Positions 19,624-61,900 of a DNA stretch of 64,000 bases are shown piece after piece. The notes below the pieces were generated by a model. It was given only the letters and a program-made list of their open reading frames with translations, did no database searches and had not been told where the DNA came from. Both the position numbers and the translations under genes were made by a program. Positions within the stretch are counted from its first letter, which is position 1; each line of letters opens with the position of its first letter. The stretch is from an uncultured Verrucomicrobiota bacterium (GTDB lineage: Bacteria > Verrucomicrobiota > Verrucomicrobiia > Methylacidiphilales > UBA1321): NCBI GenBank assembly GCA_903863295.1, contig CAIPBM010000028.1:45050-109049 (forward strand), in the 5' to 3' direction.

Positions 19624-19648
19624 CGCTCCCAAGTTGCACTTGGGAGCG
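19624..19648. repeat. Perfect 25-bp palindrome CGCTCCCAAGTTGCACTTGGGAGCG, copy 1 of a dispersed intergenic palindrome family, 31 nt downstream of the lacI-family gene
   Basis: The sequence is self-complementary. The flanks, CCTCG on the left and CTTCCTGTTCC on the right, are shared with the copies at 57574 and 61872. Confidence 0.75.
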
Positions 19649-19960
19649 CTTCCTGTTCCTCGCGAAATTTCATTCCGCGCGAACTGGAACCGTCCTACGG
19701 GCGAGATCGTCAATGATCTTGCCTCTGTAAGTTGTTTTCTAAGTGATCCATAGGAGCGGCGAGGTCGTTTTTATGCCCCTTCGCGAAAGCGTCTACCACG
19801 AGAACTTGTCCCACCCTGGCCGTGAAGTCAGGCCACCTGGCAAAATATTTTTAGCTTTGGCGAAAATTTTCCTCCACATCGGAAATATCTCCTAACCAAT
19901 AAGTTGCCTGCGACGATTCCTGTGCGATTTTAGGAATGAAAATTGCAATCGCTATTTCTG

Positions 19961-19989
19961 TTGACAGAAAACTAATCAGAGAATAATCT
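19961..19989 (+). promoter_or_regulatory. Candidate sigma70-like promoter upstream of the PEP-CTERM protein gene (-35 TTGACA, then an A/T-rich -10 region GAATAATCT)
   Basis: Perfect TTGACA at 19961-19966. ATAAT lies 15-17 nt downstream, about 25 nt before the ATG at 20010. Confidence 0.35.
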
Positions 19990-20009
19990 CGGAATAACTG
20001 AAGAATATC

Positions 20010-23000
20010 ATGAAAATACTCAACTCGCTTTTTACCACTCTCGCGCTGGCCGTTGTTTCCGCTGGCTTCTTCTCTGGCGGCACCCTACTCGCGGACACAA
20101 CCGAAACGACCTGGAATGGTGCGGGAACCGCTTGGGGTACTGGATCCAACTGGGCGAATGGTACGGGAACTTCCTCCACCGTAAGCGCCGAGTTCAATTC
20201 AAGCTTCAGCAATCAGCCCACCTTGGGGAGCACGGCGGCAACCACTCAGGGCATTTGGTTGACCACCGGCGTGAGCGGCACGACGACCATCGGTGGCACG
20301 GCCACTTTGACCCTCACGGGCACGGCTACGCTTAATTCGCAAGCCAATGCCGGCATCTACATGAACGATGCGAACAACAATAGCCTGACTATTAATGCTC
20401 CGATCACGCTTAGCAATGCCACCGGCTTTTATAACATGGAAAGTTCCTCTGGTACGCTCACCATCGCAGGCGGGCTGAACCTCAACGGCAAGGCGTTGAC
20501 CCTCGGCTCACTCACAGCTCCGGGTACGGGCAATATCACGATCAGCGGTAATATCACCGGTGGTGCTGGCACGCTCGGCATTTACAACACGGGAACAACG
20601 ACCCTTTCTGGTACCAATAGTTTCACCGGTCTAACCACGATTTTTGCGGGGGCTACGGTGATTGCTCAGGGCACTTCCGGCACGGGTGGTCTTACAGTTG
20701 GCGGGAGCACGAATGCCACGCTTGAACTCAATAATTCCACGGCCAACAACGGCGGTATCTCGACGGGTACGCTCACCTTGAACGTGGCAACGATCCAAAA
20801 CATCTATAGTTCAGCTGTGACGCTCTCCAACACCTCCACGATGTCGGGGAATGTTACCTTCTCCGGCACCCAGGCCATTACCCTCAGTGGTGTGATGACG
20901 GAAACGAATGCGAAAATTTTGACCAATAATGTCACCAACGGTCTAACCTTCTCGGCGGCCAACTTCTACCTCGCTAACGCGACTGGCTCGGGTTTAACGA
21001 CAACCTTGACTGGTTCGGGTAACACTACTTTTAGCAGCGCGATTAGCGATTATAGTGGAGGTCTTGGCACCAAGGGTGACGGTCTGACCATCACGAACAC
21101 GGGCACAACCACGTTGTCCGGCAGTAATGCCTTCGGCGGAGCCAGCGGTGGCACTGCCGGGACTTTGACGATTAATGCTGTGACCGGCACCGTCGTCCTC
21201 TCAGGTTCCAACAGCTCGCCAATTGGAACTACCACGCTCACTTCGGGTACCTTACAGCTTCAAAATAGCAGCAACGGTGGGTTGGCAGGGGGGGCTTTTA
21301 ACCTCAATGGTGGCACCCTGCAAAATACCTTCACAACGGGCCTGACGGTAACGAGCCCGGTAACTTTGGGCGGGAACGTGACGATCTCTGGTTCCCAAGA
21401 TTTAACCTTCAGCGGTGCTTTTACTCAATCCCTTAATAATCGGACGCTCACAATTAATAATACGGGAAACACTGCTCTCACGGGTGGTAATCTTTATCTC
21501 TCAGAGGCGACTGGAACGGGGCGTATTCTCACCTTTGCTGGAAGCGGTAATCTGACCATTGGCGATGTGATCGCGAATTTTAACGGCGGTGCAGGCACGG
21601 CGAGCTCCATTGTCTACGGCACCACTGGAACGGTGAATGTTTCCGGCGCGAATACCTACTCGGGCACCACCACGGTAAGTTCCGGTACGGTCGTGGCGGG
21701 TATCTCCAATTCAGGAACCACGAGCGGTGCTTTCGGACCTACCGGACTCGTTACGCTCGGTAACGCAGCCACAACGACGAATAATTCGTCCGTCTCACTG
21801 CAGAACGCGGGCTACACAGTCTCGAACGCGATCACGGTCGCCAATCAGGCCACTACGGGCGGCTACACCATCGGTGGCAGTACGGATAATGTCTCAACCT
21901 ACTCCGGGTTGATCACGGCCAACCAAAACGTGAGCATCACACAGGTGGCCAACGCCGGCAATAACGGCTCGCTCAATATCACCGGAGGTATCAGCGGCGG
22001 CAGCCAGAGCACCACCAAGACAATCACCTTTAACAATGCCGGTGCAGTCAATGTTTCAAGCACGGCCATCACCAATGGTACAGGCAGCAGTAAGATTGCC
22101 ATCGTTCAGGCCGGCTCCGGCACGACCACCTTGTCGACGGCCAATACCTTCACCGGTTCCGTCGCGATTAACAACGGTACGTTGGCCGTAACCACCGTCG
22201 GCACCGGCGCAGCCGCCCAGGGCCTCGGTGAAAACACCACGACGGCGGTCACCCTCGGTGTGGCGGGTGTTTCGTCCGGTACATTGAAGTACACCGGCTC
22301 AGGCGGTACCTTGGACAAGAACATCTCCGCGCTCGGTAACGGTAACGATACCATCCAGAATGCGGGTACGGGTGTCCTGACCCTCTCCGGTTCGCTGGTC
22401 AAGAACGGTACGGTATTGACCCTCAACGGTGGTACCAGCGGCATCAACGTCACGGGTGTGATTAGCGGCTCGGCGGCCAACTCCGATCTCGATGTTGTCA
22501 ATGGCCCGGTCACGCTCTCAAACTTGGAGACCTACAACGGCCCGACCAACATCTTTAACGGCGGCACGCTGATCGACAACGTGAGTGGCGGCGCACTGCC
22601 GACGGGAACAACCGTGAACATCGGCTCCGGATCGACCGGCGGTACCTTGGACCTCAACGGAAATAATCAATCGATCACCGGTCTCAACTCGGTCGGAACC
22701 GCCACCTCAAGCGACATCGTCACCAACAACGGTGGTGGCACGGCCACCCTGACCATCACGGGCTCGGGCACATTCGCGGGTATCATTCAGGATGGCTCGG
22801 GCGGCACCAATGTGAAAGTGACCAGCGGCACGGAATACCTGACTGGCGCCAACACCTACACCGGCACCACGACGCTCTCCGGCGGTACCACCTACATCAA
22901 CGGCAGTAACACCTCGGGTGCGGTCAACGTCAGCAGCGGTGCAACGTTGGCGGGCTCCGGCACGATCAAGCCGGGTGGCGGCACGGCGGGTGTCACGTTG

Positions 23001-23669
23001 AACACCGGCGCCAATCTGAGTTCAGGTGGGGTTCAGACCAGCGACGCGACGCACTACACGGTAACGGGCCCGGGCCTGACCCTCGATAACACCTCGCTCA
23101 CCGACACGATCCTCAATGCCAGCGCGGGCACGACGCTGACCTTCTCGCTCGGTGCAGGCGCCTCGACTGGCGCCCTGAATTTTGTCAGCCCGAACTTGAA
23201 CTCGACCTACCTGAAGATCCTCGGCAACACCTCTGGCGAGGTCAATTTTGGTACCGGCGCTGCCATCAGCATTCACCTTGTTGACTTGACGGCCTACCAA
23301 GCTATCAACAGCGTGAACGCACTCGCCCTGCGGGTGAACAATCCCTTCCTTCTCATTCAGGCGGGGGCGAACAGTGACTACGCCAACTTGGTCACCTCGA
23401 TCGACGGTACGGCGGCCAACGCCACCCTCGGTGGAAACGGCTACGTCCTTGGCGTCGGCAGCTCGACGACCAGCTACACGGCCTTTAATATCGGAGCCTA
23501 CGATATCAACGGCAATCCGATCACTGGCTCGGCCCAGTACAATGGATTGGCGCTCTACCTCTATAACGGCGATCTCGAAGTCGTTCCTGAGCCTTCGACT
23601 TGGGCGATGATTCTTGGTGGCTTTGCCCTCTTGATTGTGATCCAGCGCCGCAAAAACAAGATCAGCTAA
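20010..23669 (+). CDS. PEP-CTERM sorting-signal protein with autotransporter-associated beta-strand repeats (large surface protein)
   Basis: Signal peptide, then dozens of degenerate TxTLSGxNTYTGxTT repeats. C-terminal VPEPSTWAMILGGFALLIVIQRRKNKIS is a PEP-CTERM motif plus TM helix plus basic tail. Total 1219 aa. Confidence 0.8.
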   Translation: MKILNSLFTTLALAVVSAGFFSGGTLLADTTETTWNGAGTAWGTGSNWANGTGTSSTVSAEFNSSFSNQPTLGSTAATTQGIWLTTGVSGTTTIGGTATLTLTGTATLNSQANAGIYMNDANNNSLTINAPITLSNATGFYNMESSSGTLTIAGGLNLNGKALTLGSLTAPGTGNITISGNITGGAGTLGIYNTGTTTLSGTNSFTGLTTIFAGATVIAQGTSGTGGLTVGGSTNATLELNNSTANNGGISTGTLTLNVATIQNIYSSAVTLSNTSTMSGNVTFSGTQAITLSGVMTETNAKILTNNVTNGLTFSAANFYLANATGSGLTTTLTGSGNTTFSSAISDYSGGLGTKGDGLTITNTGTTTLSGSNAFGGASGGTAGTLTINAVTGTVVLSGSNSSPIGTTTLTSGTLQLQNSSNGGLAGGAFNLNGGTLQNTFTTGLTVTSPVTLGGNVTISGSQDLTFSGAFTQSLNNRTLTINNTGNTALTGGNLYLSEATGTGRILTFAGSGNLTIGDVIANFNGGAGTASSIVYGTTGTVNVSGANTYSGTTTVSSGTVVAGISNSGTTSGAFGPTGLVTLGNAATTTNNSSVSLQNAGYTVSNAITVANQATTGGYTIGGSTDNVSTYSGLITANQNVSITQVANAGNNGSLNITGGISGGSQSTTKTITFNNAGAVNVSSTAITNGTGSSKIAIVQAGSGTTTLSTANTFTGSVAINNGTLAVTTVGTGAAAQGLGENTTTAVTLGVAGVSSGTLKYTGSGGTLDKNISALGNGNDTIQNAGTGVLTLSGSLVKNGTVLTLNGGTSGINVTGVISGSAANSDLDVVNGPVTLSNLETYNGPTNIFNGGTLIDNVSGGALPTGTTVNIGSGSTGGTLDLNGNNQSITGLNSVGTATSSDIVTNNGGGTATLTITGSGTFAGIIQDGSGGTNVKVTSGTEYLTGANTYTGTTTLSGGTTYINGSNTSGAVNVSSGATLAGSGTIKPGGGTAGVTLNTGANLSSGGVQTSDATHYTVTGPGLTLDNTSLTDTILNASAGTTLTFSLGAGASTGALNFVSPNLNSTYLKILGNTSGEVNFGTGAAISIHLVDLTAYQAINSVNALALRVNNPFLLIQAGANSDYANLVTSIDGTAANATLGGNGYVLGVGSSTTSYTAFNIGAYDINGNPITGSAQYNGLALYLYNGDLEVVPEPSTWAMILGGFALLIVIQRRKNKIS

Positions 23670-23696
23670 ATTACAGATCCATTCCTAATGATTGAT

Positions 23697-23726
23697 CATC
23701 TGCTTCGGTTCGAAACCGGGCAGATG
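23697..23726 (+). terminator. Candidate intrinsic terminator hairpin after the PEP-CTERM gene (CATCTGC-N16-GCAGATG, then an A/T-rich stretch)
   Basis: A 7-bp perfect stem whose loop is itself near-palindromic (CGGTTCGAAACCG). It is followed by TGAAACGAAATTTGAAAT. Confidence 0.35.
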
Positions 23727-23851
23727 TGAAACGAAATTTGAAATCCCGGAATCATCCATGCCAATGACCCGGGGCATTGAGACATGATTCCTTCCGGCCT
23801 CTGCTCAACCAAATTTGGCTCTTTTTCGCGTCGCGAAACCACCGGGCAGAG

Positions 23852-24853
23852 ATGAAATCTAAAAAGCGCAAAGCTGCCATATTTTGCAACCTTCAGGAAA
23901 GGTTGAACCGGGTCTACACCACCCGCCATCGCCGCCAAATCGAAGAGCGGACCGACTGCTATCCAGTGATCATCACCTCGGAAAACTTCGGACAGCACGC
24001 CCCCTACCTGGAGGACTTGGAGGTCATCTTTACCACTTGGGGAATGCCGGTTCTGAGTGCAGGGGAAATCGAGCGCCTCCCCGCACTCCGGGCGGTTTTC
24101 TATGCCGCGGGTTCCGTCCAATCTTTTGCCCGGCCCTTTCTCGAGAGGAATATACTCATCTTCAGCGCCTGGGCGGCAAACGCCATACCGGTGGCAGAAT
24201 TCACCCTCGCGCAAATTCTCCTTTCCAATAAGGGCTACTTCAGGAACTCCAGTGAAAGCCGGTTCCGCAGCGATGCCGACCGGGCTTTTTTAGGGCGCGG
24301 AAATTATGGAGAATCGGTGGCGCTCCTGGGGGCTGGTCAGATTGGTCAGCGGGTGATCAAGCTACTCCAGCCTTTTAACCTGAAAGTCTTGGTTTTTGAT
24401 CCTTTTCTACCAGAAGACTCGGCCGAGATGCTGGGCGTCACCCGCGTGACGCTGGAGGAGGCATTCCAGGAATCCTACGTCGTCTCGAATCACCTGGCCA
24501 ACCTGCCCCCCACGCACAAGATGCTCCGGGGCGCCCACTTCGCCTCGATGAGAAAAGATGCGACCTTCATCAATACCGGACGGGCCCAGACGGTTCACCA
24601 AGTCGAGATGGTCAAGGTGTTGGAAGAGCGTCCCGATCTGCTGGCCTTGCTCGACGTCTATCATTATCCGGATGAGGCGGGTGATCGCCTGCATCAACTC
24701 AGCAATGTCCGCCTGACCACGCACATCGCCGGCTCCATGCACGACGAGCAGCACCGGATGGCCGACTGGATGATTGACGAATTTATCAATTGGAGCCAGA
24801 AGAACACGGCCCGCTATCAAGTTAGTCTTGAGATGTTGGCCACCATGGCTTAA
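23852..24853 (+). CDS. D-isomer-specific 2-hydroxyacid dehydrogenase family protein (NAD-binding)
   Basis: Rossmann motif LLGAGQIGQRVIKLL. Catalytic-domain blocks resemble glycerate/phosphoglycerate dehydrogenases. An in-frame ATG at 23852 (MKSKKRK..) is more plausible than the ORF-track start at 23777. Confidence 0.6.
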   Translation: MKSKKRKAAIFCNLQERLNRVYTTRHRRQIEERTDCYPVIITSENFGQHAPYLEDLEVIFTTWGMPVLSAGEIERLPALRAVFYAAGSVQSFARPFLERNILIFSAWAANAIPVAEFTLAQILLSNKGYFRNSSESRFRSDADRAFLGRGNYGESVALLGAGQIGQRVIKLLQPFNLKVLVFDPFLPEDSAEMLGVTRVTLEEAFQESYVVSNHLANLPPTHKMLRGAHFASMRKDATFINTGRAQTVHQVEMVKVLEERPDLLALLDVYHYPDEAGDRLHQLSNVRLTTHIAGSMHDEQHRMADWMIDEFINWSQKNTARYQVSLEMLATMA

Positions 24854-24913
24854 AGCGGTGCCAGTCATTTTGCGTCTCCCTTTCAGGCTGACTACGCAAG
24901 TAAGGAGAACGTT

Positions 24914-27385
24914 TTAGATATCCAGGACGTAGGTCTCGAGATCGACCAGGATTTCGCGCGGCTTGGCCCCTTCGCCGGGAGCGATGACGCCGACTTTCTC
25001 GAGGTAATCGATGACATAGGCCGCGCGGTTGTAGCCGAGGCGCAAGCGCCGCTGCAGGTTCGAGGTGCTGGCCCGCTTTTCCTGCCGGATCACCTCAAAG
25101 CATTCGAGAATGAGCTGCTTGTCTTCTTCGCTGACTTCCATGTCGGCGGGGGCTTTGCCGCTGAGCTTGTTGTGAATCTCGGGCACAAACTCAGCTTCGG
25201 CCTGGTCTCCGACGAACTTGACCACGGCCTGAACTTCCTCGTCGGAGACGAAGGCTCCCTGGCCACGGGTCAATCCGGCCACGCCGGGTGGGCGGTAAAG
25301 CAGGTCGCCTTTGCCGAGGAGATTTTCCGCGCCGTTTTCATCGAGGATGACGCGCGAATCGAGTCCACTCGGCACTTGGAAGGCGATGCGGGCCGGGATG
25401 TTGGTCTTGATGACGCCGGTGACGACTTCACGGCGTGGGGTCTGGGTCGCCACGATGAGATGGATCCCGGCGGCGCGGGCTTTCGCCGTGAGGCGGGCGA
25501 TGGCGCTTTCGACATCTGCGGGGGCGGTCTGCATGAGATCGGCCAACTCATCAACGATGACGACGATGTAGGGCAGGCGGTCGGGGATCACCAGATCGTC
25601 CTCGCGAGGCACGCGAATGGGAGGGCGGTTCATGTCGTCGAGCTCCTCTTCCTCCTCGTCCTCAGAGTCGTCGACATGGACGTGGAGGAATTCCATCTGC
25701 GGCGATTCCTCGGCGGGCTTCGCTTCTTCGCGGGTGCGGCTGTTGAAGCTGGCGATGTTGCGCACGCCGACCTTGGCCAGAATCTTGTAGCGCTTTTCCA
25801 TCTCGTTGATGACCCAGCGCAAGGCGAGCATGACCTTCTTCGGATCGGTGACGACCGGGACGACGAGATGCGGGATGGAATTGTAGACCTGCATTTCGAC
25901 CTGCTTGGGATCGATCAAGATGAGCCGCAATTCGTCCGGGGTAAACCGATAGAGGAAGCTCATCAGGATGCAGTTGATGCAGACCGATTTTCCGGAACCC
26001 GTCGTGCCGCCGATGAGCATGTGGGGCATGGCGGCGAGATCGGCCACCAGCGTCTTGCCATAGACGTCCTTGCCGAGGGCGATGGGAATCTTGGCGTTCG
26101 TGTTGTTCCAGTCGCGGCTCTCGAGCAGTTCACGCAGGAAGACGGCGACCTTGTTCGAGTTCGGAATCTCGATCCCGACGGTGTCCTTGCCGGGAATCGG
26201 GGCGAGGATGTTGATCCGCTCCGCGCGCAGCACGCGGGAGAGATCGCGGCCCAGGCTGCTGATCTTGTCAACGCGCACGCCCTTGCCGGGATAGACCTCG
26301 TAGCGGGTGATCGTCGCGCCGGGGGTGATCTCGCCAGGTGTGGCGGCGACGCCAAAGCGCTCCAGCGTCTCAATGATGAGATCGAGGTTGTTGTGGAGTT
26401 GCTCGTCGCTCAGGCCTGCATCGCGTGCCTTGCCCGCCGGGGCGCTCAGGAGCTGGACGGAGGGAAGCATGTAGTCGGGTACGAGGACGGAGGGGAGGGG
26501 AACGAATGGCTTGCTCGGCGCGGCTTTGGGAGTAGGAGGTTTGGTGGCCGATTTGGCCGCGGCGACAGGTGTGGGTTCCTCGATGTCCTCATCCGGACGG
26601 CGAATGGGGGCCCGGATGGGTTCAGCTTCCGGCGCCTCTTCGAGTTCATCTTCGACCACGACAGGAGCAGGTTCCAGCGCGGCTTTCTTTTCGAGCTCCT
26701 CGATCTTCTTTTTGACCCGGCGTTTCTGGATTTCGAGCTGCTCCTCTGGCGGTGCATTGGCCAGGCGTTCCTCTTCGCGGCGCATATTCCATTCGCGGTA
26801 CCAGGAGAACGCGTTGAGCACGGTGACGATCGGGTTGACGTTGAAAAGATAGACGGCGGAGATGCCGAAGACGGTGCCAAAAAGGATGGTTGAGCCGACG
26901 CTGTTGAGGGCGTAGGGAACGGTGAGCTGGATGATGGAGCCGCCGACCAGTCCGCCGGGGCTGTCGATATTGGCGAGGTGCTGGATCAGGTGCCAGCCGC
27001 CGAGATGCTGAAGGTTGAGAAGGGCGCAGCCGCTGACGAGAAAAAGCACAAGCCAGACCGGCTTCCAGAGCCAGTTGACCTGGATGCCGAGCAGATTGAC
27101 CAGGCAGCAGCAGAAAAAAAGGAGCGGGAAGAAATAGGCGCCAAAACCGAAGCCATAGTAGAGCACGCCCGCCAATCCGGCTCCCGCATACCCGATGAAA
27201 TTTGAGGGAATGGTATTGGACGGATAGACGTTAAAGCCAAGATCCGCCGGGTCGTATGAGATCAGGGAAAGCAGGGTGACGATGTAAAGCGAGAGCCAAA
27301 GAAACCCGATGACCTGCTTGAAGAGCGGAAGCTGGGCGAGATTTTTGGCCCAGGATGGATGAGACGCTGCGTCACTACTCGGCAT
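24914..27385 (-). CDS. ftsK: DNA translocase FtsK
   Basis: N-terminal polytopic membrane domain, Pro/Glu-rich linker, Walker A GGTTGSGKSVCIN, and the C-terminal winged-helix gamma domain LQRRLRLGYNRAAYVIDYLEKVGVI. Confidence 0.9.
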   Translation of the reverse strand: MPSSDAASHPSWAKNLAQLPLFKQVIGFLWLSLYIVTLLSLISYDPADLGFNVYPSNTIPSNFIGYAGAGLAGVLYYGFGFGAYFFPLLFFCCCLVNLLGIQVNWLWKPVWLVLFLVSGCALLNLQHLGGWHLIQHLANIDSPGGLVGGSIIQLTVPYALNSVGSTILFGTVFGISAVYLFNVNPIVTVLNAFSWYREWNMRREEERLANAPPEEQLEIQKRRVKKKIEELEKKAALEPAPVVVEDELEEAPEAEPIRAPIRRPDEDIEEPTPVAAAKSATKPPTPKAAPSKPFVPLPSVLVPDYMLPSVQLLSAPAGKARDAGLSDEQLHNNLDLIIETLERFGVAATPGEITPGATITRYEVYPGKGVRVDKISSLGRDLSRVLRAERINILAPIPGKDTVGIEIPNSNKVAVFLRELLESRDWNNTNAKIPIALGKDVYGKTLVADLAAMPHMLIGGTTGSGKSVCINCILMSFLYRFTPDELRLILIDPKQVEMQVYNSIPHLVVPVVTDPKKVMLALRWVINEMEKRYKILAKVGVRNIASFNSRTREEAKPAEESPQMEFLHVHVDDSEDEEEEELDDMNRPPIRVPREDDLVIPDRLPYIVVIVDELADLMQTAPADVESAIARLTAKARAAGIHLIVATQTPRREVVTGVIKTNIPARIAFQVPSGLDSRVILDENGAENLLGKGDLLYRPPGVAGLTRGQGAFVSDEEVQAVVKFVGDQAEAEFVPEIHNKLSGKAPADMEVSEEDKQLILECFEVIRQEKRASTSNLQRRLRLGYNRAAYVIDYLEKVGVIAPGEGAKPREILVDLETYVLDI

Positions 27386-53124: not shown

Positions 53125-54285
53125 TCACCCCACCTGCATGATCGACGGCTTGAGCAATTCCCATTGCCAGGCGCACCAGCGGTTCTCACCGATGAGGCGA
53201 TCCGGGGCGGTATCCGGATTGCGCGCCACGTCCTGAAGCGTCGATTTGGGCGCGATGACCGTCGGATCAAGGCCCAGGTCAGCCGCGATCGCATCGCGAT
53301 GGAGCCGGAGCTTTTCCATGCGGACCTCGGCATCCTTGTCGCGCGGGGGACGCTCGGCCCGCGGCAGACGCGGCACGGGCGGGGCCTGGCGCCCCTTATC
53401 AATGGCATCAATGAGTCGTTCTGCCCGCTGCGGCGAAGTCCGCTGCGGCCAACGCGGTGCGCCCATCGGCGAGATTTTCGGGTTTTCCGCGCACCAGACG
53501 GCGAGGTCGAGCAGGAGCTCGTTATGCAGCACCTTGAACACGGGAAGATCGACCGACTCGGCCTCTTTCTCGCGCCAATGCCAGAGTTCCCGCACGATGG
53601 CCTGGGCCTGTGGCGAAAGCAGCGCGGAACCGGAGATGCGCCAGTCGTTCTCGGGATCGTCCTCGCGCACGATCTGGCTGGAGGCGACGACCCGGGCGCA
53701 CGATTGCTCATGCCAGGTGCGGCGTCCCTTTTCGTCGAGCAGCGCACCCAGCGCCTCGGCGATGGGCTCCAGGTACTGGGTGTCCTGCACCGCGTAATCG
53801 ATCATCATCTGGGAAAGGGGACGGCGCGACCAATCGGCCTTCTGGCTCGTCTTGTTCAAGGTGATGCCGCAAAAGCGTTCCACCAGCGCGCCATAGCCGA
53901 ACGCCTTTTCCCCGACCAGTTGCGCCGCCAGCATCGTATCAAACACGGCCTGCGGCTCGGGCGCACCCGCGCGGCGGAGCATGCGGAGATCGAAATCAGC
54001 CCCGTGGAGAATCCAGGTATGGCGACTGGTCGGCGGCCAGAGTTCATCCAGCGGGAAGGAATCAAGCGGATCAATGAGAAAGTGCTGCTCCGCGTGGGTC
54101 ACCTGGATTAGGCAGACGCTCTCGCGGTAATGGTGCAGGCTGTCCGCTTCCGTATCGAGCGCCAGCGGAAAGTAGCCGCGTAGGCTGGTAATAAAGTAGT
54201 CGAGGGCTTGCGGGGTATTGACCCAGATGAACTCGGCTTGGCTGTTTGACATAAAGACCAGCCGATCATGCGGCAACCCGCGCAT
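53125..54285 (-). CDS. rnd: Ribonuclease D (3'-5' exonuclease with HRDC domain)
   Basis: DEDDy exonuclease motifs LALDTEADSL ... HGADFDLRML ... YAVQD. C-terminal HRDC-like region. The probable true start is the Met at 54252 (MSNSQAEFIWV..). Confidence 0.8.
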   Translation of the reverse strand: MRGLPHDRLVFMSNSQAEFIWVNTPQALDYFITSLRGYFPLALDTEADSLHHYRESVCLIQVTHAEQHFLIDPLDSFPLDELWPPTSRHTWILHGADFDLRMLRRAGAPEPQAVFDTMLAAQLVGEKAFGYGALVERFCGITLNKTSQKADWSRRPLSQMMIDYAVQDTQYLEPIAEALGALLDEKGRRTWHEQSCARVVASSQIVREDDPENDWRISGSALLSPQAQAIVRELWHWREKEAESVDLPVFKVLHNELLLDLAVWCAENPKISPMGAPRWPQRTSPQRAERLIDAIDKGRQAPPVPRLPRAERPPRDKDAEVRMEKLRLHRDAIAADLGLDPTVIAPKSTLQDVARNPDTAPDRLIGENRWCAWQWELLKPSIMQVG

Positions 54286-54330
54286 AACGACAAGCGCGTT
54301 CCGAAATAACCAACATTGAAGCCCCGGAAC

Positions 54331-54610
54331 GCCGTCATCCTGAGCGGAGGCGAGCCCGGGAGTATGGGTTCAGGAAAAGATTAACCCGAGCCGCAGTCGA
54401 AGGACCTGCTTTGCTTCAAAGCGACATCTCAGTAGCACGTTATTACTTCTAGGAGAACGGCCGCTCTGCGCTCTTTGCATCTGCGGAGGACATGCCTTTT
54501 ATTTCCGCTTTTCAAATCGCCAGTCTCATGGAACTAGGTCCTTCGACTTCGGCTCGGACTACTCTTCATGCTCAGCGAAATCGCCCTCTCGCCTTCGCTC
54601 AGGATGACAG
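54331..54610. repeat. Two inverted copies of a ~75-nt module (CYGTCATCCTGAGCGRAGGCGAG - ~30 nt - CCGAGCCGMAGTCGAAGGACC), separated by 131 bp, in the 420-bp rnd-moeB intergenic region
   Basis: Left copy 54331-54406. Right copy 54538-54610 in reverse orientation. The 22-nt and 21-nt termini of each copy match with one mismatch each, while the ~30-nt centres differ. Confidence 0.65.
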
Positions 54611-54706
54611 CGTTTTTAAACAACATGGCCCCCCGAAAGGGCGGCGACTCTATACCACCACCATGGGACTTGCGATTGCCCTCTTTTGTTCCATAATGGT
54701 TAGCTC

Positions 54707-55897
54707 ATGAGTTTCATTCCCCGCATCAACAAGGTCTACCAAGAGGTAACCTTCACCAATGAAGAGATTCGCCGTTATGGACGTCATCTCATCATGCCGG
54801 AGGTGACGCTGGAGGGACAACAGAAGCTCAAGGCCGCACGGGTCATCGTCATCGGGACGGGCGGACTCGGCGCGCCCATTCTGGCCTATCTGGCGGCGGC
54901 GGGCGTGGGGCACATCGGCGTGGTTGATTTCGACACGGTCGATCTCTCCAATCTCCACCGGCAGATCATCCACAAGACGGGCAACGTCGGTAAACTCAAG
55001 ACCCAATCGGCGGTCGAGCTGATGAAGGAAATCAATCCCGACATCGACATCAAGACCTACGACACCTCGCTCCGCGCCGACAACGCGCTCGACCTGCTCC
55101 GCGACTACGACATTGTCATCGACGGCACCGATAATTTCCCGACCCGTTACCTGGTCAACGATGCCTGCGCCTTGCTCGACAAGCCGAACGTCTACGGCTC
55201 GATCTTCCGCTTTGAAGGACAGGCGACCGTTTTCTGGGCCTCGCAAGGGCCCTGCTACCGCTGTCTCTATCCCGAACCGCCCGAGGCCGGCACCGTCCCC
55301 AGTTGCGCGGAGGGTGGCGTGCTCGGCGTGCTTCCCGGCGTGGTCGGCACGATCCAGGCGACCGAAGCGGTGAAGTTGATCATCGGCGCGGGCGATCCGC
55401 TCATCGGCCGGCTCCTCCTCTTCGATGCCCTGAAGATGAAGTTCAAGGAGCTCAAGCTCCGCAAAGACCCCAAGTGCCCGCTTTGCGGCCCCAACAAGAC
55501 GATCACCGAATTGATCGATTATGAGTTCTTCTGCGGCGTAACCCCTGAGCAAAAAAAGCCAGCCGTCCACGTCGAGGAAGTCGAAGTGGAGGACGTCGAC
55601 GCGGCGATCAAGTCGGGCAAAGTCCCGGCAGAGATCGACCTGCTCGACATCCGCGAGCCGTTCGAGGCCAAAATCGCCCAGATTCCCCACTCGAAGCTGA
55701 TTTCCCTGGCCGATTTCCGCAAACGGATGCACGAACTCGATAGCGCCCGGGAAATTTGGCTCTATTGTAAAGATGGCGCGCGCAGCTCCAAGGCGTGGAA
55801 ATTGCTCTATGATGCCGGATTCAGGAAAATCAAGAATGTCGCAGGTGGAATCGATGCATGGAGCGAGGATATTGATCCCAACACGCCGAGGTACTGA
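54707..55897 (+). CDS. Molybdopterin/thiamine-synthase sulfur-carrier adenylyltransferase (MoeB/ThiF/MoeZ type) with a C-terminal rhodanese domain
   Basis: ThiF/MoeB blocks YGRHLIMPEVTLEGQQKL ... VIVIGTGGLGAP ... DFDTVDLSNLHRQ. Zn-binding CYRC...C..C. C-terminal rhodanese active-site Cys in LYCKDGARSS. Confidence 0.85.
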   Translation: MSFIPRINKVYQEVTFTNEEIRRYGRHLIMPEVTLEGQQKLKAARVIVIGTGGLGAPILAYLAAAGVGHIGVVDFDTVDLSNLHRQIIHKTGNVGKLKTQSAVELMKEINPDIDIKTYDTSLRADNALDLLRDYDIVIDGTDNFPTRYLVNDACALLDKPNVYGSIFRFEGQATVFWASQGPCYRCLYPEPPEAGTVPSCAEGGVLGVLPGVVGTIQATEAVKLIIGAGDPLIGRLLLFDALKMKFKELKLRKDPKCPLCGPNKTITELIDYEFFCGVTPEQKKPAVHVEEVEVEDVDAAIKSGKVPAEIDLLDIREPFEAKIAQIPHSKLISLADFRKRMHELDSAREIWLYCKDGARSSKAWKLLYDAGFRKIKNVAGGIDAWSEDIDPNTPRY

Positions 55898-55976
55898 GCA
55901 GGAAAGGGAAAAGGAAGCAGCCACGTGCTCCCTACCTTTTCCCTTTCAACTTTCCACTTTTTCCTTCGCCCCCTCC

Positions 55977-56276
55977 ATGGCCAAACCCGGTACGGAAACC
56001 AGCCCCGACATCGATGTCGAGGACAAGCTCAAGGACGCCTTCGCCCGCGGCTGGACGGTCGTGGTCTGGAACGACCCGATCAACCTCATGGATTACGTCG
56101 TCTACGTCTTCAAGACCGTGTTGAAAATGAACGAAAAGGACGCCTCGCGCCACATGTGGGAGGTCCATCAACTGGGCAAAAGCCAGGTGGCACGGGAGAC
56201 GAAGGAAAAATCGGAATTGCTTGTTCACCGCTTGCGCGGGTTCGGATTAAACGCAACCATGGAGCAGGCCGATTAG
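55977..56276 (+). CDS. clpS: ATP-dependent Clp protease adaptor ClpS
   Basis: VVVWNDPINLMDYVVYVFKTVLKMNEKDASRHMWEVHQLGKSQVARETKE matches the ClpS core. The internal ATG at 55977 gives about 100 aa; the ORF-track start at 55773 adds a non-conserved extension. Confidence 0.85.
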   Translation: MAKPGTETSPDIDVEDKLKDAFARGWTVVVWNDPINLMDYVVYVFKTVLKMNEKDASRHMWEVHQLGKSQVARETKEKSELLVHRLRGFGLNATMEQAD

Positions 56277-56288
56277 CCTCGATTTCCC

Positions 56289-56810
56289 ATGACTTGCGAA
56301 CAAATCGATTCCCAACATTGGACCCTGAGTTTCCCAGAGGCCGAGGCCGTGTTCATCATCAACATCCTGGCGCGGCTCGCGCGGAATTATCAGGAAGACC
56401 TGAGCGAGATGCCGCCCGCCCTGCGCGCCTATTGGCAGGGAACGCTGACCGTTGGCGAAGCGGCAAACAAGGAAGAGATGCGGGAATCGCAGGAAGTCCT
56501 TTCCGAGGCACGCGCGGAGTTGCGTTCCGACCGGCTCGCGCTGGTCGAGAACTGGATCCGGGAATTTGAAATTGCCGAGAAACGGGATCCCTGGGAAGTC
56601 GACGTCAGCAATGAAGAGCGGGACGAGTTCATCTCCATGCTCAACGACCGCCGCCTGCTCCTCGCCTTTGAAGCCGGAATCACCGAACAGGACATGACCG
56701 TCGATCCCGGCGAAATCAGCCAGGAAGCGCGCCGCCATGCCGTGCTGGAAATAGATATCCTCGGGCACTTCATCCTGGTTATGCTGGGGCCGCAAATTCA
56801 CCGCCCATGA
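56289..56810 (+). CDS. Hypothetical acidic cytoplasmic protein (173 aa)
   Basis: The ORF lies 12 nt after clpS, and its stop overlaps the HAD hydrolase start (ATGA). Predicted helical and Glu-rich. No recognisable motif. Confidence 0.4.
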   Translation: MTCEQIDSQHWTLSFPEAEAVFIINILARLARNYQEDLSEMPPALRAYWQGTLTVGEAANKEEMRESQEVLSEARAELRSDRLALVENWIREFEIAEKRDPWEVDVSNEERDEFISMLNDRRLLLAFEAGITEQDMTVDPGEISQEARRHAVLEIDILGHFILVMLGPQIHRP

Positions 56811-57436
56811 TTACCTTTGACCCGACTGCCTACGACGGATTCATCTTCGATTGCGACGGCACGCTCGCCGACACCATGCCGCTCCATTACCAGGCCTGGA
56901 GGGAATCCCTGGAACGGAAGCTCGGGCATCCTTCCGCCTTCACGGAAGAATTGTTCTACCGCTGCGGCGGCATGCCCGCGCGGCAAATCATCGAGATGTT
57001 GAACCGCGACTATGGTTACAGCCTGCCCGTCCACGAATTTGCAGAGGAAAAGGAAGCCCGTTTTGTCGAGCTCCTGCCCGGCATCGGTCCGGTCCAGGAA
57101 GTGATCGATGTTTTGAACCGCCTCGGCCCGGACGCGAAGGTCGCCGTGGCCTCGGGCGGGTTGACCCCTGTGGTTCGTCAGACGCTGGAGTTCCTGGGAC
57201 TGAAAGTCGGCCCAACGGAGAAGATTCAATATCTCGTCGGCTCGGATCAGGTCACCCATGGCAAACCCGACCCGGAATTGTTTCTCCGCGCCGCAAAATT
57301 GCTGGGAGTGAAGCCGGAAAAATGTCTCGTTTTTGAAGACGCCACCCCCGGCTTTGAGGCCGCAAAAGCCGCCGGCATGGACTACATCGACGTGCGTCCC
57401 TTCCGGGCGACGATCCACGCCGCTGCGAAGTATTAG
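56807..57436 (+). CDS. HAD-superfamily hydrolase, subfamily IA (beta-phosphoglucomutase/phosphatase-like)
   Basis: Motif I FIFDCDGTLADT. Motif II (S/T) and motif III K ... motif IV FEDATPGFEAAKAAGM, typical of HAD-IA. Confidence 0.8.
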   Translation: MITFDPTAYDGFIFDCDGTLADTMPLHYQAWRESLERKLGHPSAFTEELFYRCGGMPARQIIEMLNRDYGYSLPVHEFAEEKEARFVELLPGIGPVQEVIDVLNRLGPDAKVAVASGGLTPVVRQTLEFLGLKVGPTEKIQYLVGSDQVTHGKPDPELFLRAAKLLGVKPEKCLVFEDATPGFEAAKAAGMDYIDVRPFRATIHAAAKY

Positions 57437-57467
57437 GCGCGGCTTTTAGCTTAGGCAAAGGGCCTCT

Positions 57468-57574
57468 GCACGTCCCCCTGTAGCGGCGGTCTATCACCGT
57501 CGTCGACGAGAGGAGCGACGTTGCGAAAAGGTGACAGTCATAGACCGCCGCTACAGGGAAGGCACATCCCCCTC
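57468..57574. repeat. MITE-like element: a perfect 19-bp inverted repeat (57476-57494 and 57540-57558) around a 45-nt core, flanked by direct repeats CACGTCCCCCT / CACATCCCCCT
   Basis: CCCTGTAGCGGCGGTCTAT and its exact reverse complement ATAGACCGCCGCTACAGGG. The flanking 11-nt direct repeats at 57468-57478 and 57563-57573 resemble a target-site duplication. Confidence 0.6.
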
Positions 57575-57598
57575 GTTCCCAAGTTGCACTTGGGAACG
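57574..57598. repeat. Palindrome family copy 2, CGTTCCCAAGTTGCACTTGGGAACG, between the convergent HAD and glgP genes
   Basis: Self-complementary, with the same CCTCG left flank and CCCTGTCTG right flank as the other copies. Confidence 0.75.
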
Positions 57599-57649
57599 TC
57601 CCTGTCTGCGCAACTTCGTTGCCCCCGGTAGCGGCAAGTCCGCCCAAAA

Positions 57650-60115
57650 TCAGACCGGAACCGCAGGCAAATTCCAGATTTCCTTGGCGTACTCGTGGAT
57701 CGTGCGGTCGCTGGAGAACTTATCCATGCGCGCCGTGTTGAGGATCGCCATGCGCGCCCACTTCGTTTTATCCCGGTAAGCCGCATCAATCTTTTCCTGC
57801 GCGTCGCTGTAAGAACGGAAATCGGCCAGGCAGAGGTAAGGGTCGCCGCCTTCCAGCAGGCTGTGGCGGAGCGATCCCAGCACTCCCGGTTCATCCGGTG
57901 TGAAGTAGTTGGAGCCCACCCAATCGACCACCGCGCGCAATTCTTCATCGGCGAGGTAGTAGTCGTGCGGATGATAGCCGCGCGCCCAGAGCGCCTCGAC
58001 CTGATCCACGGTCAGCCCGAAGATAAAGATATTATCCGGTCCCACTTCCTCAAGGATTTCCACATTGGCTCCGTCCAGCGTCCCGACGGTCAAGGCACCG
58101 TTGAGTGCCAGCTTCATGTTGCCGGTGCCGGACGCTTCCTTGCCCGCCGTGGAGATTTGTTCCGAGATATCTGCCGCCGGAATGATCCGTGAGGCGAGCG
58201 AGACGCGGTAATTCGGCAGGAAGACCACCTTGAGCTTGTCGCCCACCCGAGGATCATTGTTGATCTTGTTCCCCACCGCGTTGATCGCCTTGATGATGCA
58301 CTTGGCCAGGTCGTAACCGGGCGCGGCCTTCGCGGCAAAGACGAAGACGCGCGGCTGCACGTCGAGGGTCGGATTCTGCAGGATGCGGCGATAGAGCGCG
58401 AGGATATGGAGCAGGTTGAGATGCTGCCGCTTGTACTCGTGGAGACGCTTGATCTGCACGTCGAAAAGCGCGGAAGGATTGACCGTGACGCCACATTCTT
58501 TCTGGATGATCTTCGCCAGGTCAACCTTGTTGGCGTGTTTGACCGCCATGAAATCTTTCTGGAACTCGGGATCGTCGGCCCACTGTTCCAGCTTGCGCAG
58601 TTCTTCCTGGTGCTTGACCCAGCCATCGCCGATTTTTGAGGTGATCAAATCGGCCAGGCGCGGGTTGGAAGCCTGCAACCAGCGGCGGGGCGTGATGCCA
58701 TTGGTCTTGTTGTTGAACTTGCCGGGATAGAAGGCATTGAAGTCAGCAAAGAGATGTTTCTTCAGCAATTCGGTATGCAGCGCGGCCACCCCGTTGACCG
58801 AGTGGCTGCCCACCACCGCGAGGTTCGCCATGCGCACCATCTGCACGCCGCCTTCCTCAATCAGCGACATGACCTGCTTCTTGTGGGCATCGCCGGGATA
58901 GGCGGCTTCCACCGTATCGAGCAGGCGCTTGTTGATCTCGAAGATCAACTGGAGATGGCGCGGCAACACTTTCTGGAAGAGCGGCACGCTCCATTTTTCG
59001 AGCGCTTCCGGCAACAAGGTGTGATTGGTGTAGGCGAAGGTCTTCGTGACAATGCCCCACGCTTCATCCCAAGGCAGGCCGTTCTCATCATGGAGAATGC
59101 GGAGTAACTCGACGACAGCGACTGTCGGGTGGGTATCGTTGAGCTGGATGGCGACCTTGCTCGGGAAATCGGTCCAGCTTGGATTGCTGCGCTGGAAGCG
59201 GCGGATGATGTCGCGCAGGGAGCAGGAGACAAAGAAGTACTGCTGGATCAGGCGGAGTTCCTTCCCGGCTTCGGTCTTGTCATTGGGATAAAGAACCTTC
59301 GAGACCGTTTCGCTCTGCGTCTTGGCAGCGAGGGCTTCGCTGTAACCGCCGCGATTGAACGCCTCAAGATTGATCTTCTCCGAGGGGCGCGATTCCCAGA
59401 GACGCAGGAAGTTCACCGTGTTGGTGCCATAGCCGGGAATCGGGATGTCATAGGGAACGCCGAGAATCTTGGTCGTATTGACCCAGTGAGGGACGTAGTT
59501 GCCCTTGTCATCGAAGATGTTCTCCACATGACCGTAGAGCCGGACTTCCTGGGTATATTCAGGACGGACGATTTCCCAGGGCGTGCCGAAGCGCATCCAG
59601 TCATCCGGCATTTCGATCTGGTGGCCGTTGCTGAATTCCTGGCGGAAGAGGCCGAACTCATAGTGGATGCCATAACCGACGGCCGGGTAATCGAGCGTGG
59701 CAAGGGAATCGAGGAAACAGGCGGCCAGGCGACCAAGACCGCCGTTGCCCAGGCCCATGTCGTATTCCTCCCCGCGGAGTTCGTCCATGTCGAGGCCCAG
59801 TTCCTTGAGCGCCTGCTCGGTCTCGCCGTGGATACCGGCGTTATAAAGGCTGTTGGAGAAAAGGCGTCCCATGAGGAACTCAAGCGAGAGATAGTAGACC
59901 CGGCGGACATCCTGCTGATTGTGGACTGCCTGCGTGGCGATCATCCGTTCAATGATCCGTTCCTGCACCGCCTTGGACGTGGCCAGCCACCAATCCCGCT
60001 TCGTCGCCGACTGGACATCGTGCGCCAGGCTGAACTTCAATTGGTGAAGAATCGCGTCCTTCATCGACTGGGCGGACTTTTCAAAAAAGCTGTGGAACTT
60101 CGGGTTGGTGGTCAT
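57650..60115 (-). CDS. glgP: Glycogen/alpha-glucan phosphorylase
   Basis: Pyridoxal-phosphate site [28 protein letters not shown]. Phosphorylase N-terminal region [16 protein letters not shown]. Start taken at the Met at 60115 (MTTNPKF..); the ORF track extends to 60169. Confidence 0.9.
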
Positions 60116-60317
60116 GGAGCGTGGATGGATGGATGAGTTGGAGTGTAAAAGTAGACAATGGGCCGACAAAAGTTACCGCGTCCAGCTTTAGTTAGGCCAG
60201 ACACGGAAACGGAACATTTAAGCAGGAAGTCTGCCAGCGGTGGTGATTCCCTCAATTCCGTTTGAGCGTGAGGCTGAGTTGACTATTCAGTGAGTCCACC
60301 TAAGCTGCTTAAATTCC

Positions 60318-61862
60318 ATGTCCAAAAGCTCCTTCCTCCGTTCCGCGGCTACCTTGGGTGCCGGCATTGCTTTCCTGACCGCTTGCTCCGTTGGCCCTGA
60401 TTACGTTCAGCCCACCGCCCCCCAGTCCCTGAGTTATAAGGAGGCGGGCAAGTGGAAGAAGGGTGAACCCAAGGATGATATCTCCAAGGGCAACTGGTAC
60501 TCCGTTTTCCATGATGAAAAGTTGAATGAGCTTGAGGCTGAAGCCCAGATGGCCAACCAGAATCTCCGCGCCGCCGCAGCCCGCGTCAGCGAATCGCGCG
60601 CCTTGGCCCGCGAGACGGAAGCGAATTTTTTCCCGACGATTGACTTCAGCGCAGCAGGGAGCCGCCAGCGCACCTCGCCCAATGATGGCCAGGCGGTGGC
60701 CCAGTCGCCCACGGGAGTAGCCCCGGCAACCACGTTCACCTCGGCAACCGTGGTCCCTTTCGATCTCAGCTATGAAGTCGATATCTGGGGCAAGATCCGC
60801 CGCGCTTATGAATCCGCAGGAGACCAGGCCCAGGCCACCCTTGCCGACTTCGAAAACGCCCTCCTTTCGCTCAAGGCGGATGTCGCCACCAATTACTTCG
60901 CGCTTGAAACCGCCGATTCGCTCATTGATGTGCAGCGCCGCACCATCCAGGCCTACAAGGAAAATCTCGACCTGACCAACAGCCGCTTCAAGGGCGGCAT
61001 CAGCACCCTGCTTGACGTCGAACAGGCGGAGGCGACTCTTGCCGCAGCGCAGGCGCAGTTGGGGCAATTCCAGCAGACCCGCGCCCAATATGAACACGCC
61101 ATTGCGGTGCTCCTCGGCCGTCCACCCTCCACCTTCTCGCTCTCGTTCCGTCCGCTGCACAGCCAGCCTCCCGTGATTCCGCCCGGCCTTCCTTCCTCGC
61201 TGCTGGAACGCCGTCCGGACGTCTCGGCTGCGGAGCGCCGCGTCGCCGCGCAAAACGCGCAGATCGGTGTCGCCATTGCCGCCTATTTCCCCACCGTGCA
61301 ATTGACCGGCCAGACCGGCTTGGACAGCGGTGACCTCGGCCTGCTCTTCAATTGGCAGAGTCGCATCTGGTCTTATGGGCCGAGCATCCAATTCCCGATT
61401 TTTGAAGGTGGGCAAATCAGCGCCACCGTCAAGCAGGAGCGGGCCAAGTATGAGGAAAACGTCGCGCTCTACCGCGAACAGGTTCTCGTCGCCTTCCAGG
61501 ATGTGGAAAACGGGCTGAGCTCCTTGCGCTATCTCTCCCAGCAACAGGAAGCCGAAGACCGCGCCTTCACGGCCTATAACAAAGCGCTGGAGTTGACCAA
61601 CCAGCGCTACACGACGGGTCTCGTCTCCTACTTTGACGTAATCCAGGCGGAAGGCCTGGCCTTGGGTGCCGAGCAGCAAACCGTTCAAATCCAGGGCAAC
61701 CGCATGGCCTCGACCGTCCTCCTGATCAAGGCCCTCGGCGGCGGCTGGGCCGATTCTCCTTTGGCCAAGCCTGATCATGGTGACCACGTTTCGCAACCTC
61801 TGGCCGCCCCCACCGTCCTCGGCCCAGTCAAAGGACAAGCCGTTCCTGCCGCCGGACAGTAG
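60318..61862 (+). CDS. Efflux-system outer-membrane factor lipoprotein (TolC-like, NodT family)
   Basis: Lipoprotein signal with lipobox LTAC. The two-repeat outer-membrane-factor architecture carries the conserved blocks FFPTIDFS ... LLDVEQAE and YFPTVQLTG ... YFDVIQAE. Confidence 0.85.
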   Translation: MSKSSFLRSAATLGAGIAFLTACSVGPDYVQPTAPQSLSYKEAGKWKKGEPKDDISKGNWYSVFHDEKLNELEAEAQMANQNLRAAAARVSESRALARETEANFFPTIDFSAAGSRQRTSPNDGQAVAQSPTGVAPATTFTSATVVPFDLSYEVDIWGKIRRAYESAGDQAQATLADFENALLSLKADVATNYFALETADSLIDVQRRTIQAYKENLDLTNSRFKGGISTLLDVEQAEATLAAAQAQLGQFQQTRAQYEHAIAVLLGRPPSTFSLSFRPLHSQPPVIPPGLPSSLLERRPDVSAAERRVAAQNAQIGVAIAAYFPTVQLTGQTGLDSGDLGLLFNWQSRIWSYGPSIQFPIFEGGQISATVKQERAKYEENVALYREQVLVAFQDVENGLSSLRYLSQQQEAEDRAFTAYNKALELTNQRYTTGLVSYFDVIQAEGLALGAEQQTVQIQGNRMASTVLLIKALGGGWADSPLAKPDHGDHVSQPLAAPTVLGPVKGQAVPAAGQ

Positions 61863-61871
61863 GACGGTTCC

Positions 61872-61900
61872 GACGTTCCCAAGTCGCGCTTGGGAACGTC
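61872..61900. repeat. Palindrome family copy 3, GACGTTCCCAAGTCGCGCTTGGGAACGTC, 10 nt after the NodT-family gene stop
   Basis: Perfect 29-bp palindrome. The core TTCCCAAGT..ACTTGGGAA and the right flank TCTCTGTTGG are shared with copies 1 and 2. Confidence 0.75.

Follow-up and report, generated by a model that had tools for sequence, protein, structure and literature searches.

What are the three short hairpins that lie behind genes in a 64,000-nucleotide stretch of DNA from an uncultured Verrucomicrobiota bacterium (contig CAIPBM010000028.1; the whole stretch is called the window here)? They are very probably dispersed copies of a family of repetitive extragenic palindromic (REP) elements, whose cognate enzyme belongs to a clade of REP-associated tyrosine transposases (RAYT, or TnpA_REP) of the HUH-Y1 type. 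REPs are non-autonomous, single-strand-DNA mobile repeats. The mobile unit of this family has an unpaired (Y)CT tag, a hairpin with the 11-bp stem CGTTCCCAAGT and a 3-nt loop (H1), 8-11 nt of linker, and a shorter triloop hairpin (H2). In related genomes a RAYT gene lies between two inverted units, in the order H1>H2> RAYT <H2<H1. Dispersed copies are extragenic, independent of the orientation of genes, and often paired convergently as they are around the RAYT gene.

Hairpins in the window

All three window hairpins are on the + strand. They are 25-29 nt long, with perfectly complementary arms of 11-12 nt (a stem of 11-12 bp) and a loop of 3-5 nt. The features are as follows.

19622..19648, + strand: REP copy 1, CT tag and H1; unpaired 5' tag CT at 19622-19623, stem 19624-19634 / 19638-19648 (CGCTCCCAAGT / ACTTGGGAGCG), loop TGC
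19661..19679, + strand: H2 of copy 1, CGCGAAATTTCATTCCGCG; a degenerate form of CGCGAAATTCCATTTCGCG with one stem mismatch (2 mismatches to that consensus)
57572..57598, + strand: REP copy 2, CT tag and H1; tag CT at 57572-57573, stem 57574-57584 / 57588-57598 (CGTTCCCAAGT / ACTTGGGAACG), loop TGC
57610..57622, + strand: weak H2 of copy 2, GCAAC-TTC-GTTGC, 11 nt after H1 in the centroid fold
61872..61900, + strand: REP copy 3, H1; stem 61872-61883 / 61889-61900 of 12 bp (GACGTTCCCAAG / CTTGGGAACGTC), 5 nt between the arms, a T.G pair, apex CGC

The first-pass annotation, made from the letters of the window, had placed three copies at 19624-19648, 57574-57598 and 61872-61900, and the stems are located exactly there. 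It described them as perfect palindromes with conserved flanks on both sides. The arms of the inverted repeats are indeed perfect, but the units are of odd length and their centres are not self-complementary (the 3-nt loop TGC in copies 1 and 2; TCGCG in copy 3). The 3' flank (T(Y)CCTGT / TCTCTGT) is common to all three copies, while the 5' flank CCTCG is found in copies 1 and 2 only and reads CCGACG at copy 3. Other parts of that description agree with the analysis. The hairpins begin 31 nt (copy 1), 138 nt (copy 2) and 10 nt (copy 3) after an upstream + strand stop codon, within the 10-140 nt proposed, and Pfam assigns the preceding genes to LacI, HAD and OEP (NodT type), respectively. Copy 2 lies between convergent HAD and glycogen phosphorylase genes. 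As also proposed, a U-tract is absent: no T-run follows the window hairpins on either strand.

A search of the window with the pattern TCCCAAGTNGCNCTTGGGA (<=3 mismatches) matches these three sites only. Shuffled sequences give 0.16 expected matches, and the observed count is reached in 0 of 100 shuffles. No additional copies or variants emerged in the window when it was searched for the foot by itself, for the H2 consensus sequences, or with a generic regular expression for a hairpin on this foot. DNA folding energies of the copies with their flanks are -17 to -25 kcal/mol. The combination of a GC-rich hairpin and a U-tract that marks an intrinsic terminator is not found at the window hairpins, and a terminator scan of 57300-62300 does not call the hairpins in it. 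No Rfam family matches the window at its gathering threshold, and the surroundings of copy 1 have no match even at E <= 10. In a plasmid collection the sole match is an unrelated glgP fragment.

Copies 1 and 2 have close relatives elsewhere. The copy 1 segment is 84-87% identical over 60-69 nt to the Verrucomicrobiae loci L118, L069, L008, and L003. The CGCGAAATTCCATTTCGCG hairpin, of which copy 1 carries the degenerate form, follows H1 in these loci and in L074 and L102, also from Verrucomicrobiae. H1 of copy 2 is the exact family consensus and is the same as the H1 flanking RAYT genes in L075, L086, L042, L186, and others; copy 2 also has 97.7% identity to L016 over 44 nt. The stems of copies 1 and 2 differ by a compensatory double change from T:A to C:G, which keeps the pairing. 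H2 of copy 2 is tentatively taken as a genuine second hairpin: its spacing in the predicted fold fits the 8-11 nt linker of RAYT-proximal copies, and the assignment is tentative because it has five base pairs only. Copy 3 has a stem of 13 bp with a CGC loop when the T.G pair is counted. It has GA, which is paired, in place of the CT tag, and folding finds no recognisable H2 there. Copy 3 is probably a decayed or variant copy.

One further observation concerns copy 2. The ACAGGGA 5' of it is complementary to the linker TCCCTGT right after H1, and the predicted fold of 57554-57605 puts H1 inside a longer interrupted stem. This complementarity may be due to chance or may be a remnant of a partner copy.

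A hairpin family in several phyla

When one genome per GTDB species (596 Gb) is scanned for exact matches to the pattern, at least 118 loci are found. Among the loci listed, Verrucomicrobiota are represented by Chthoniobacterales, Methylacidiphilales, and a closed 4.07-Mb chromosome with seven loci. Other groups are Thermodesulfobacteriota / "Deltaproteobacteria" (including contigs >1 Mb), Hydrogenedentes, and Kapaibacteria / Ignavibacteriae. Further loci come from an AT-rich metagenome-assembled genome (MAG) labelled Hyphomicrobiales, Thiomargarita / Thiotrichaceae, and some Burkholderiales. By our own arithmetic, about 70 matches to a 17-base pattern are expected by chance in 596 Gb. Among the matches listed, however, 113-116 of 128 unique copies (88-91%) have C-T-C at positions -5 to -3. 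Since chance matches would not share flanks, nearly all of the scan matches are therefore related.

The anatomy of the family is clear from these 128 copies. The 11-bp stem is kept (C-3 to T7 paired with A11 to G21), and it shows covariation at -2/+20, where 86 copies have GC and 14 have CG. The CT at -5/-4 is conserved at the same 88-91%, yet its pairing with the opposite flank (+22/+23) is possible in no more than about one third of the copies, so it is a conserved, mostly unpaired tag at the 5' foot. The family consensus is thus an unpaired 5' (Y)CT tag, the 11-bp stem CGTTCCCAAGT, the loop TGC, a linker, and a second, weaker hairpin. In the family loci H2 is usually found 8-12 nt downstream of H1. 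It reads GCCAAGCTNAGCTTGGC in deltaproteobacterial loci and GCGAAGTTGCACTTCGC or CGCGAAATTCCATTTCGCG in Verrucomicrobia.

Several variants and neighbouring structures were seen in the family loci. Just upstream of the CT-tagged hairpin, a GTAG-type REP (GGTGCGTNAGACGCACC-CTAC; on the other strand GTAG-GGTGCGTCTNACGCACC) adjoins it in L032, L037, L060, L065, and L104; two REP families therefore occur in the same intergenic regions of several Thermodesulfobacteriota loci. In L036, L042, L081, and L175, tandem partial feet (CTCGTTCC(C), 2-4 repeats) stand 5' of a complete hairpin. Their appearance suggests either several rounds of cutting and religation or slippage at the foot. A variant with the loop GGC and the foot GCAT is found in L012, L015, L067, L077, L078, L095, and L110, whose hosts are Thiomargarita, Thiotrichaceae, and a Burkholderiales MAG. 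Another hairpin, GACCGCNNCGCGGTC, precedes this variant in most of its loci, and L110 has four copies of the variant within 500 nt. Reading the motif as a sigma-54 promoter was rejected by inspection: the GG-N10-GC spacing does not fit.

Association with a transposase gene

In L075, two inverted copies of the hairpin enclose an open reading frame (ORF) of 177 aa (L075:3938-4471, - strand). Its product matches the NCBIfam model NF047646 (REP-associated tyrosine transposase) with 114.9 bits, above the cutoff of 80. It also matches Pfam Y1_Tnp ('Transposase IS200 like') with 23.8 bits, and it scores 20.3 bits against NCBIfam transpos_IS200, below the cutoff of 55. Homologues of this RAYT detected by tblastn adjoin the hairpin in L086, L038, and L042. 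The layout in all four loci is tag-H1, H2, start ... stop, inverted H2, inverted H1, sometimes with several copies. L038 with its RAYT and L030 with dispersed copies belong to the same Verrucomicrobia MAG.

An alignment of 12 family members shows the expected catalytic residues of an HUH-Y1 enzyme. H60-x-H62 (HUH) and Y138-IHY-NP (Y-x3-NP) are invariant or nearly so, and a W-x-Y-S-S motif is also common. The profile of these 12 members has a sole match in the PDB, 4ER8 (E. coli TnpA_REP, E = 3.5e-8). The protein database contains 1738 homologues at E <= 1e-10, many of them named 'REP element-mobilizing transposase RayT' by JGI. No tnpB was seen beside the RAYT gene in the loci read.

Hairpin copies also bracket small genes (217, 223, and 218 aa) in L062:2368-3907 and L087:4189-4955. 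These were suspected to be transposases, but they show no similarity to the RAYT by tblastn, the only comparison made (no family-library search was made).

The association was also examined in reverse, beginning with the enzyme. A metagenome scan with the RAYT alignment gave 80 loci. A window-type hairpin (<=3 mismatches) on the + strand stands 54-90 nt 5' of the ATG, mostly near -61, in 34 of the 74 loci that have enough upstream sequence. A - strand copy is found 30-90 nt past the stop codon in 31 of 77 loci. Most other RAYT loci keep the foot CTCGTTCCCAA...TTGGGAACG and differ in the upper stem and loop (e.g., the apices AAGCTCCAGCTT, AAACTCTGTTT, AATCTCCGGATT, and ACGCTCTGCGT). In the 56 loci that could be parsed, H1 (mostly 11-12 bp) is followed, typically after 8-11 nt, by H2 (5-9 bp, usually with a triloop), and the ATG comes next, usually after 10-20 nt. 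Two of these metagenomic RAYTs, P0064 and P0073, are probably on the same contigs as L014 and L013, judging by matching length alone.

The apex variants follow the RAYT protein clusters, and apices differ between RAYT clades (AAGTTGCACTT vs AAGCTCCAGCTT). The apices of H1 and H2 appear to co-vary by lineage: the observed similarity of 0.50 exceeds the highest value reached in 2000 permutations (0.46). Because the loci are not independent, this co-variation is indicative only. The window-type apex occurs with both the deltaproteobacterial and the verrucomicrobial RAYT clusters, which are mutually only ~50% identical.

Behaviour of dispersed copies

The listed family loci contain 163 copies at <=2 mismatches. 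Only 29% of them are inside ORFs (crude calls, >=100 aa), compared with 82% of all positions in the same loci (binomial p ~1e-49). The first-pass annotation had proposed REP-like behaviour with a RAYT as the possible partner, and had named a lack of genome-wide enrichment in intergenic regions or at 3' ends as the observation that would speak against it. The proposal is supported: the copies are extragenic across the family loci, dispersed, and arranged in REPIN-like doublets (REP doublets forming hairpins), and related genomes have inverted copies of the same hairpin on either side of RAYT genes.

Of the 98 copies outside the crude ORFs, 47 share the strand of their upstream ORF and 41 are opposite to it; the remaining 10 have no neighbour. 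Copies are found in co-directional, convergent, and divergent intergenic regions. The position always 3' of plus-strand genes, which had been put forward as a property of the repeat, is true of the window but not of the family, and with an unbiased family orientation it is therefore a small-sample effect. Copies separated by less than 400 nt form 27 pairs, of which 21 are convergent (H1>H2> <H2<H1), with a spacing of 40-160 nt. These convergent doublets are of the type seen in REPINs and in bacterial interspersed mosaic elements (BIMEs).

Mechanism and alternative explanations

In E. coli, TnpA_REP binds the folded REP in single-stranded DNA and reads four bases at the 5' foot specifically (PMC3479197). 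Cleavage takes place at a CT dinucleotide by way of a 5'-phosphotyrosine, and strand transfer is possible (PMC3479197). By analogy, the RAYT of this family would bind the hairpin that single-stranded DNA folds into, such as at a replication fork. Bases at the hairpin foot would position the cleavage, and the strand would be cut and rejoined through a 5'-phosphotyrosine, which would duplicate or move the units (PMC3479197). The unpaired CT and the C:G foot are likely determinants of specificity or cleavage, and H2 could serve as a second binding or regulatory hairpin. If the window hairpins are transcribed as 3' untranslated regions (UTRs), they may in addition protect mRNA 3' ends or affect termination. 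Such a role may be at most a side effect of the mobile repeat and not the reason for its conservation; it is unsupported as a selected function because the orientation of the family is unbiased.

Several points weigh against assigning the window hairpins to a RAYT-mobilised REP family. The canonical tag GTAG/GTGG is not found: positions -6 to -3 read (C)CTC, a foot that fits the broader 'tagged REP' concept. Both GTAG and the stem mismatch are required in the E. coli TnpA_REP system (PMC3479197). The recognition rules of E. coli are not simply transferable to this family because its stems are perfect and GTAG is absent. Cleavage, binding, and transposition by this RAYT clade are predicted by analogy. 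The window copies are all singletons, with no REPIN doublets among them, and copy 3 may be past mobilisation, which it has possibly lost together with the CT tag and H2. The statistics on orientation and extragenic location rest on crude ORF calls. A high copy number in the source genome is an extrapolation, because only 3-4 copies are visible for that genome. Finally, the first-pass annotation had suggested searching for a RAYT elsewhere in the genome. A RAYT with the same flanking hairpin is present in related genomes, but tblastn with 12 RAYTs found none in the 64 kb of the window or the 10 kb that follow it. The RAYT serving the window copies is expected elsewhere in the source genome.

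A different origin would be selection by the host at the RNA level, where the hairpins act as terminators without a U-tract or as blocks to 3'->5' exonucleases and resemble one another through a common RNA-binding factor. The window would suit this explanation. Its three copies and a fourth one beyond its end (described below) are on the sense strand 10-140 nt past a + strand stop codon, the RNA hairpins of the window copies are stable (-16.6 to -22.2 kcal/mol; z-scores -5.5 to -6.6), and the A-to-G change of copy 3 leaves a U.G pair that can form in RNA of the + strand but not of the other. E. coli REPs, moreover, are reported as 3' UTR regulators (bioRxiv 10.64898/2026.03.23.713779; PMC3733652). 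The family as a whole does not suit it. Orientation is unbiased (47 same, 41 opposite) and copies also occur in divergent intergenic regions, a U-tract and a terminator call are both absent at the window copies, and an RNA role explains neither the identical inverted sequence around RAYT genes, nor the convergent pairing, nor the one-sided conservation of the unpaired CT tag. Host RNA elements are thus an unlikely origin of these repeats.

It is still less likely that the mobile element is of another kind, namely that the repeats are miniatures (of the type of palindrome-associated transposable elements, PATEs, or miniature inverted-repeat transposable elements, MITEs) of a multi-copy IS200/IS605-type insertion sequence (IS) spreading horizontally across phyla, and not partners of a single-copy domesticated RAYT. 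Near-identical 25-nt hairpins beside ~50% identical proteins in several phyla make horizontal spread plausible, many RAYT contigs are ~1 kb long as if assemblies break at repeats, and the Pfam match Y1_Tnp is itself entitled 'Transposase IS200 like'. However, the flanking hairpins are inverted, whereas IS200/IS605 ends are distinct and direct; Y-x3-NP is the signature of class 2 RAYTs (PMC6006769); the transpos_IS200 score is below its cutoff (20.3 vs 55) while the RAYT model is above its own; and no tnpB stands beside the gene in the loci read. Operator sites for a regulator, or chance low-complexity palindromes with no common origin, are effectively refuted. Operators are typically palindromic, and a lacI-family gene precedes one of the copies, but three copies stand against 0.16 expected, they lie after genes and not at promoters, and their conservation is asymmetric, with the tag on one side and H2 on the other. 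The covariation in the stem points to a folded single strand and not to a duplex operator, and the family is found in several phyla adjoining unrelated genes.

Comparison with known REP systems

REP and RAYT as a kind of element are well known (PMC2817692, PMC3116915, PMC3479197), and the mechanism class proposed here for the window hairpins, as REPs mobilised by a RAYT, is ordinary. What is noteworthy is the non-GTAG tag, the two-hairpin unit, and the near-identity across phyla. With the REP/BIME and TnpA_REP of E. coli (4ER8; PMC3479197), the family shares a short extragenic hairpin whose 5' foot carries a conserved unpaired tag, an HUH-Y1 gene enclosed by inverted copies, and a match of the protein family. 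It differs in that the tag is (Y)CT and not GTAG, and in that the stem is perfect with a triloop, while E. coli REPs are imperfect and the mismatch is needed for binding. The unit here also includes a directly oriented second hairpin. Alignment of the two proteins (36.6 bits) is confined to the surroundings of the HUH motif and of the Y/C-terminal region.

The REPIN-RAYT systems of Pseudomonas (PMC3116915, PMC5581495) have similar convergent doublets 40-160 nt apart that mirror the RAYT flanks, and a similar co-variation of clade and variant. Unlike in Pseudomonas, the foot of the hairpin, and often the whole 25-nt hairpin, is common to several phyla here; GTAG is absent, and the window copies are singletons. 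The CGTC-tagged REPs (PMC3733652) also have a non-GTAG tag, and CCTC is listed as a variant of CGTC; about half of the copies here have CCTC-G. The CGTC REPs are reported to combine stems of 8-9 bp that begin with A/T pairs, loops of 4-5 nt, and a CCA tail, and to have no dedicated transposase (PMC3733652). The present family, by contrast, has an 11-bp stem starting with C:G and a 3-nt loop, lacks the CCA tail, and is linked to a RAYT, and it falls outside that super-family.

RAYT-like genes flanked by recurring non-GTAG structures are also known in TnpA_Y1 subclass 2.6 and among the atypical REPs of class 3 (PMC6006769). Their feet, GCTAG (subclass 2.6) and CnGA (class 3), are unlike the (Y)CT foot here. 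The HUH-to-Y spacing is ~76-78 aa in this clade compared with 58-67 aa in most subclasses, and it is longer also in 2.4 and 2.6 (PMC6006769). The supplementary table of PMC6006769 has no entry for a ...TTCCCAAG... REP. Note that the automatic REP search of that study required GTAG or GTGG (PMC6006769). IS200/IS605 ends and PATEs are similar in that a Y1 HUH enzyme reads subterminal single-stranded DNA hairpins through a guide sequence at the foot. Here the flanks are inverted and not direct, the Y-x3-NP signature is present, the IS200 model is below its cutoff, and tnpB is absent beside the gene.

Searches of the literature by sequence retrieved no paper for CCCAAGTTGCACTTGGG and only primer-type matches for CGTTCCCAAG, and no description of the family was found in the literature searched. 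The family is possibly, with doubt slightly outweighing belief, an undescribed cross-phylum REP/RAYT lineage. It would be characterized by a (Y)CT-CG tag, by tandem hairpins whose apices co-evolve with the transposase, and by a 25-nt hairpin that is unchanged beside RAYTs only ~50% identical. The identical 25-nt hairpin is found beside RAYTs in Verrucomicrobiota and Thermodesulfobacteriota, and Hydrogenedentes, Kapaibacteria, and giant sulfur bacteria carry close variants of it. If the lineage is real, either the recognition of DNA by the protein is unusually constrained or REP-RAYT pairs have repeatedly been transferred between phyla. REPIN-RAYT systems have been described as lineage-specific and vertically inherited (PMC3116915, PMC5581495), and either option would go against this picture of them as lineage-specific, vertically inherited symbionts. 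REP finders based on GTAG would then miss a widespread class.

For the window itself, the assignment to a REP family means that the palindromes are ordinary selfish or domesticated repeats and not regulatory sites specific to the neighbouring genes. More generally, it provides a non-GTAG REP that has a clear link to a RAYT clade and is present in environmental phyla that have been little studied. Published surveys of REPs sought GTAG/GTGG (PMC6006769) or reported no transposase for non-GTAG REPs (PMC3733652). It also provides a comparative data set for how RAYTs read hairpins, with a conserved foot, an apex that varies together with the protein clade, and an H2 that has this apex too. The family permits a test of purely vertical inheritance of REP-RAYT systems.

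Genomic surroundings of the window copies

A fourth + strand copy lies ~3.7 kb beyond the end of the window (L210:15513-15531, TTCCCAAGTCGCACTTGGGAA, 1 mismatch); this ~74-kb stretch has four copies, all of them on the + strand. The foot of the fourth copy is TCA rather than CTC. It falls within a called minus-strand gene of 158 aa that has no Pfam hit. The GC skew of the window is mostly negative on the + strand.

The glycogen phosphorylase of the window is 89-91% identical to Methylacidiphilales proteins, and the contig is a metagenome scaffold; the host is therefore a Methylacidiphilales-like Verrucomicrobiota MAG. Among the relatives matched on glgP, two are free of copies within 4 kb of it, and one has a degenerate copy in the other orientation; none of them is syntenic with the window. 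Relatives whose LacI is 71-81% identical have no copy after lacI, and the regions there are too diverged to align. The absence of copies at lacI and glgP in relatives would fit turnover of the repeats, and it indicates a lack of conservation, not an exact insertion site.

Two neighbouring genes deserve mention. The ORF of glycogen phosphorylase (window 57650-60169, - strand) encodes 839 aa from the first TTG, and its close homologues are all 820-822 aa long. The true start is probably ~18 codons downstream of the first TTG. The ORF after copy 1 (window 20010-23669, + strand) encodes a 1219-aa protein that contains PATR repeats and, at its C-terminus, a PEP-CTERM sorting signal. At this position relatives carry either a GH92 gene or, directly, the 2-hydroxyacid dehydrogenase gene, and the gene for the 1219-aa protein is therefore variable in its neighbourhood.

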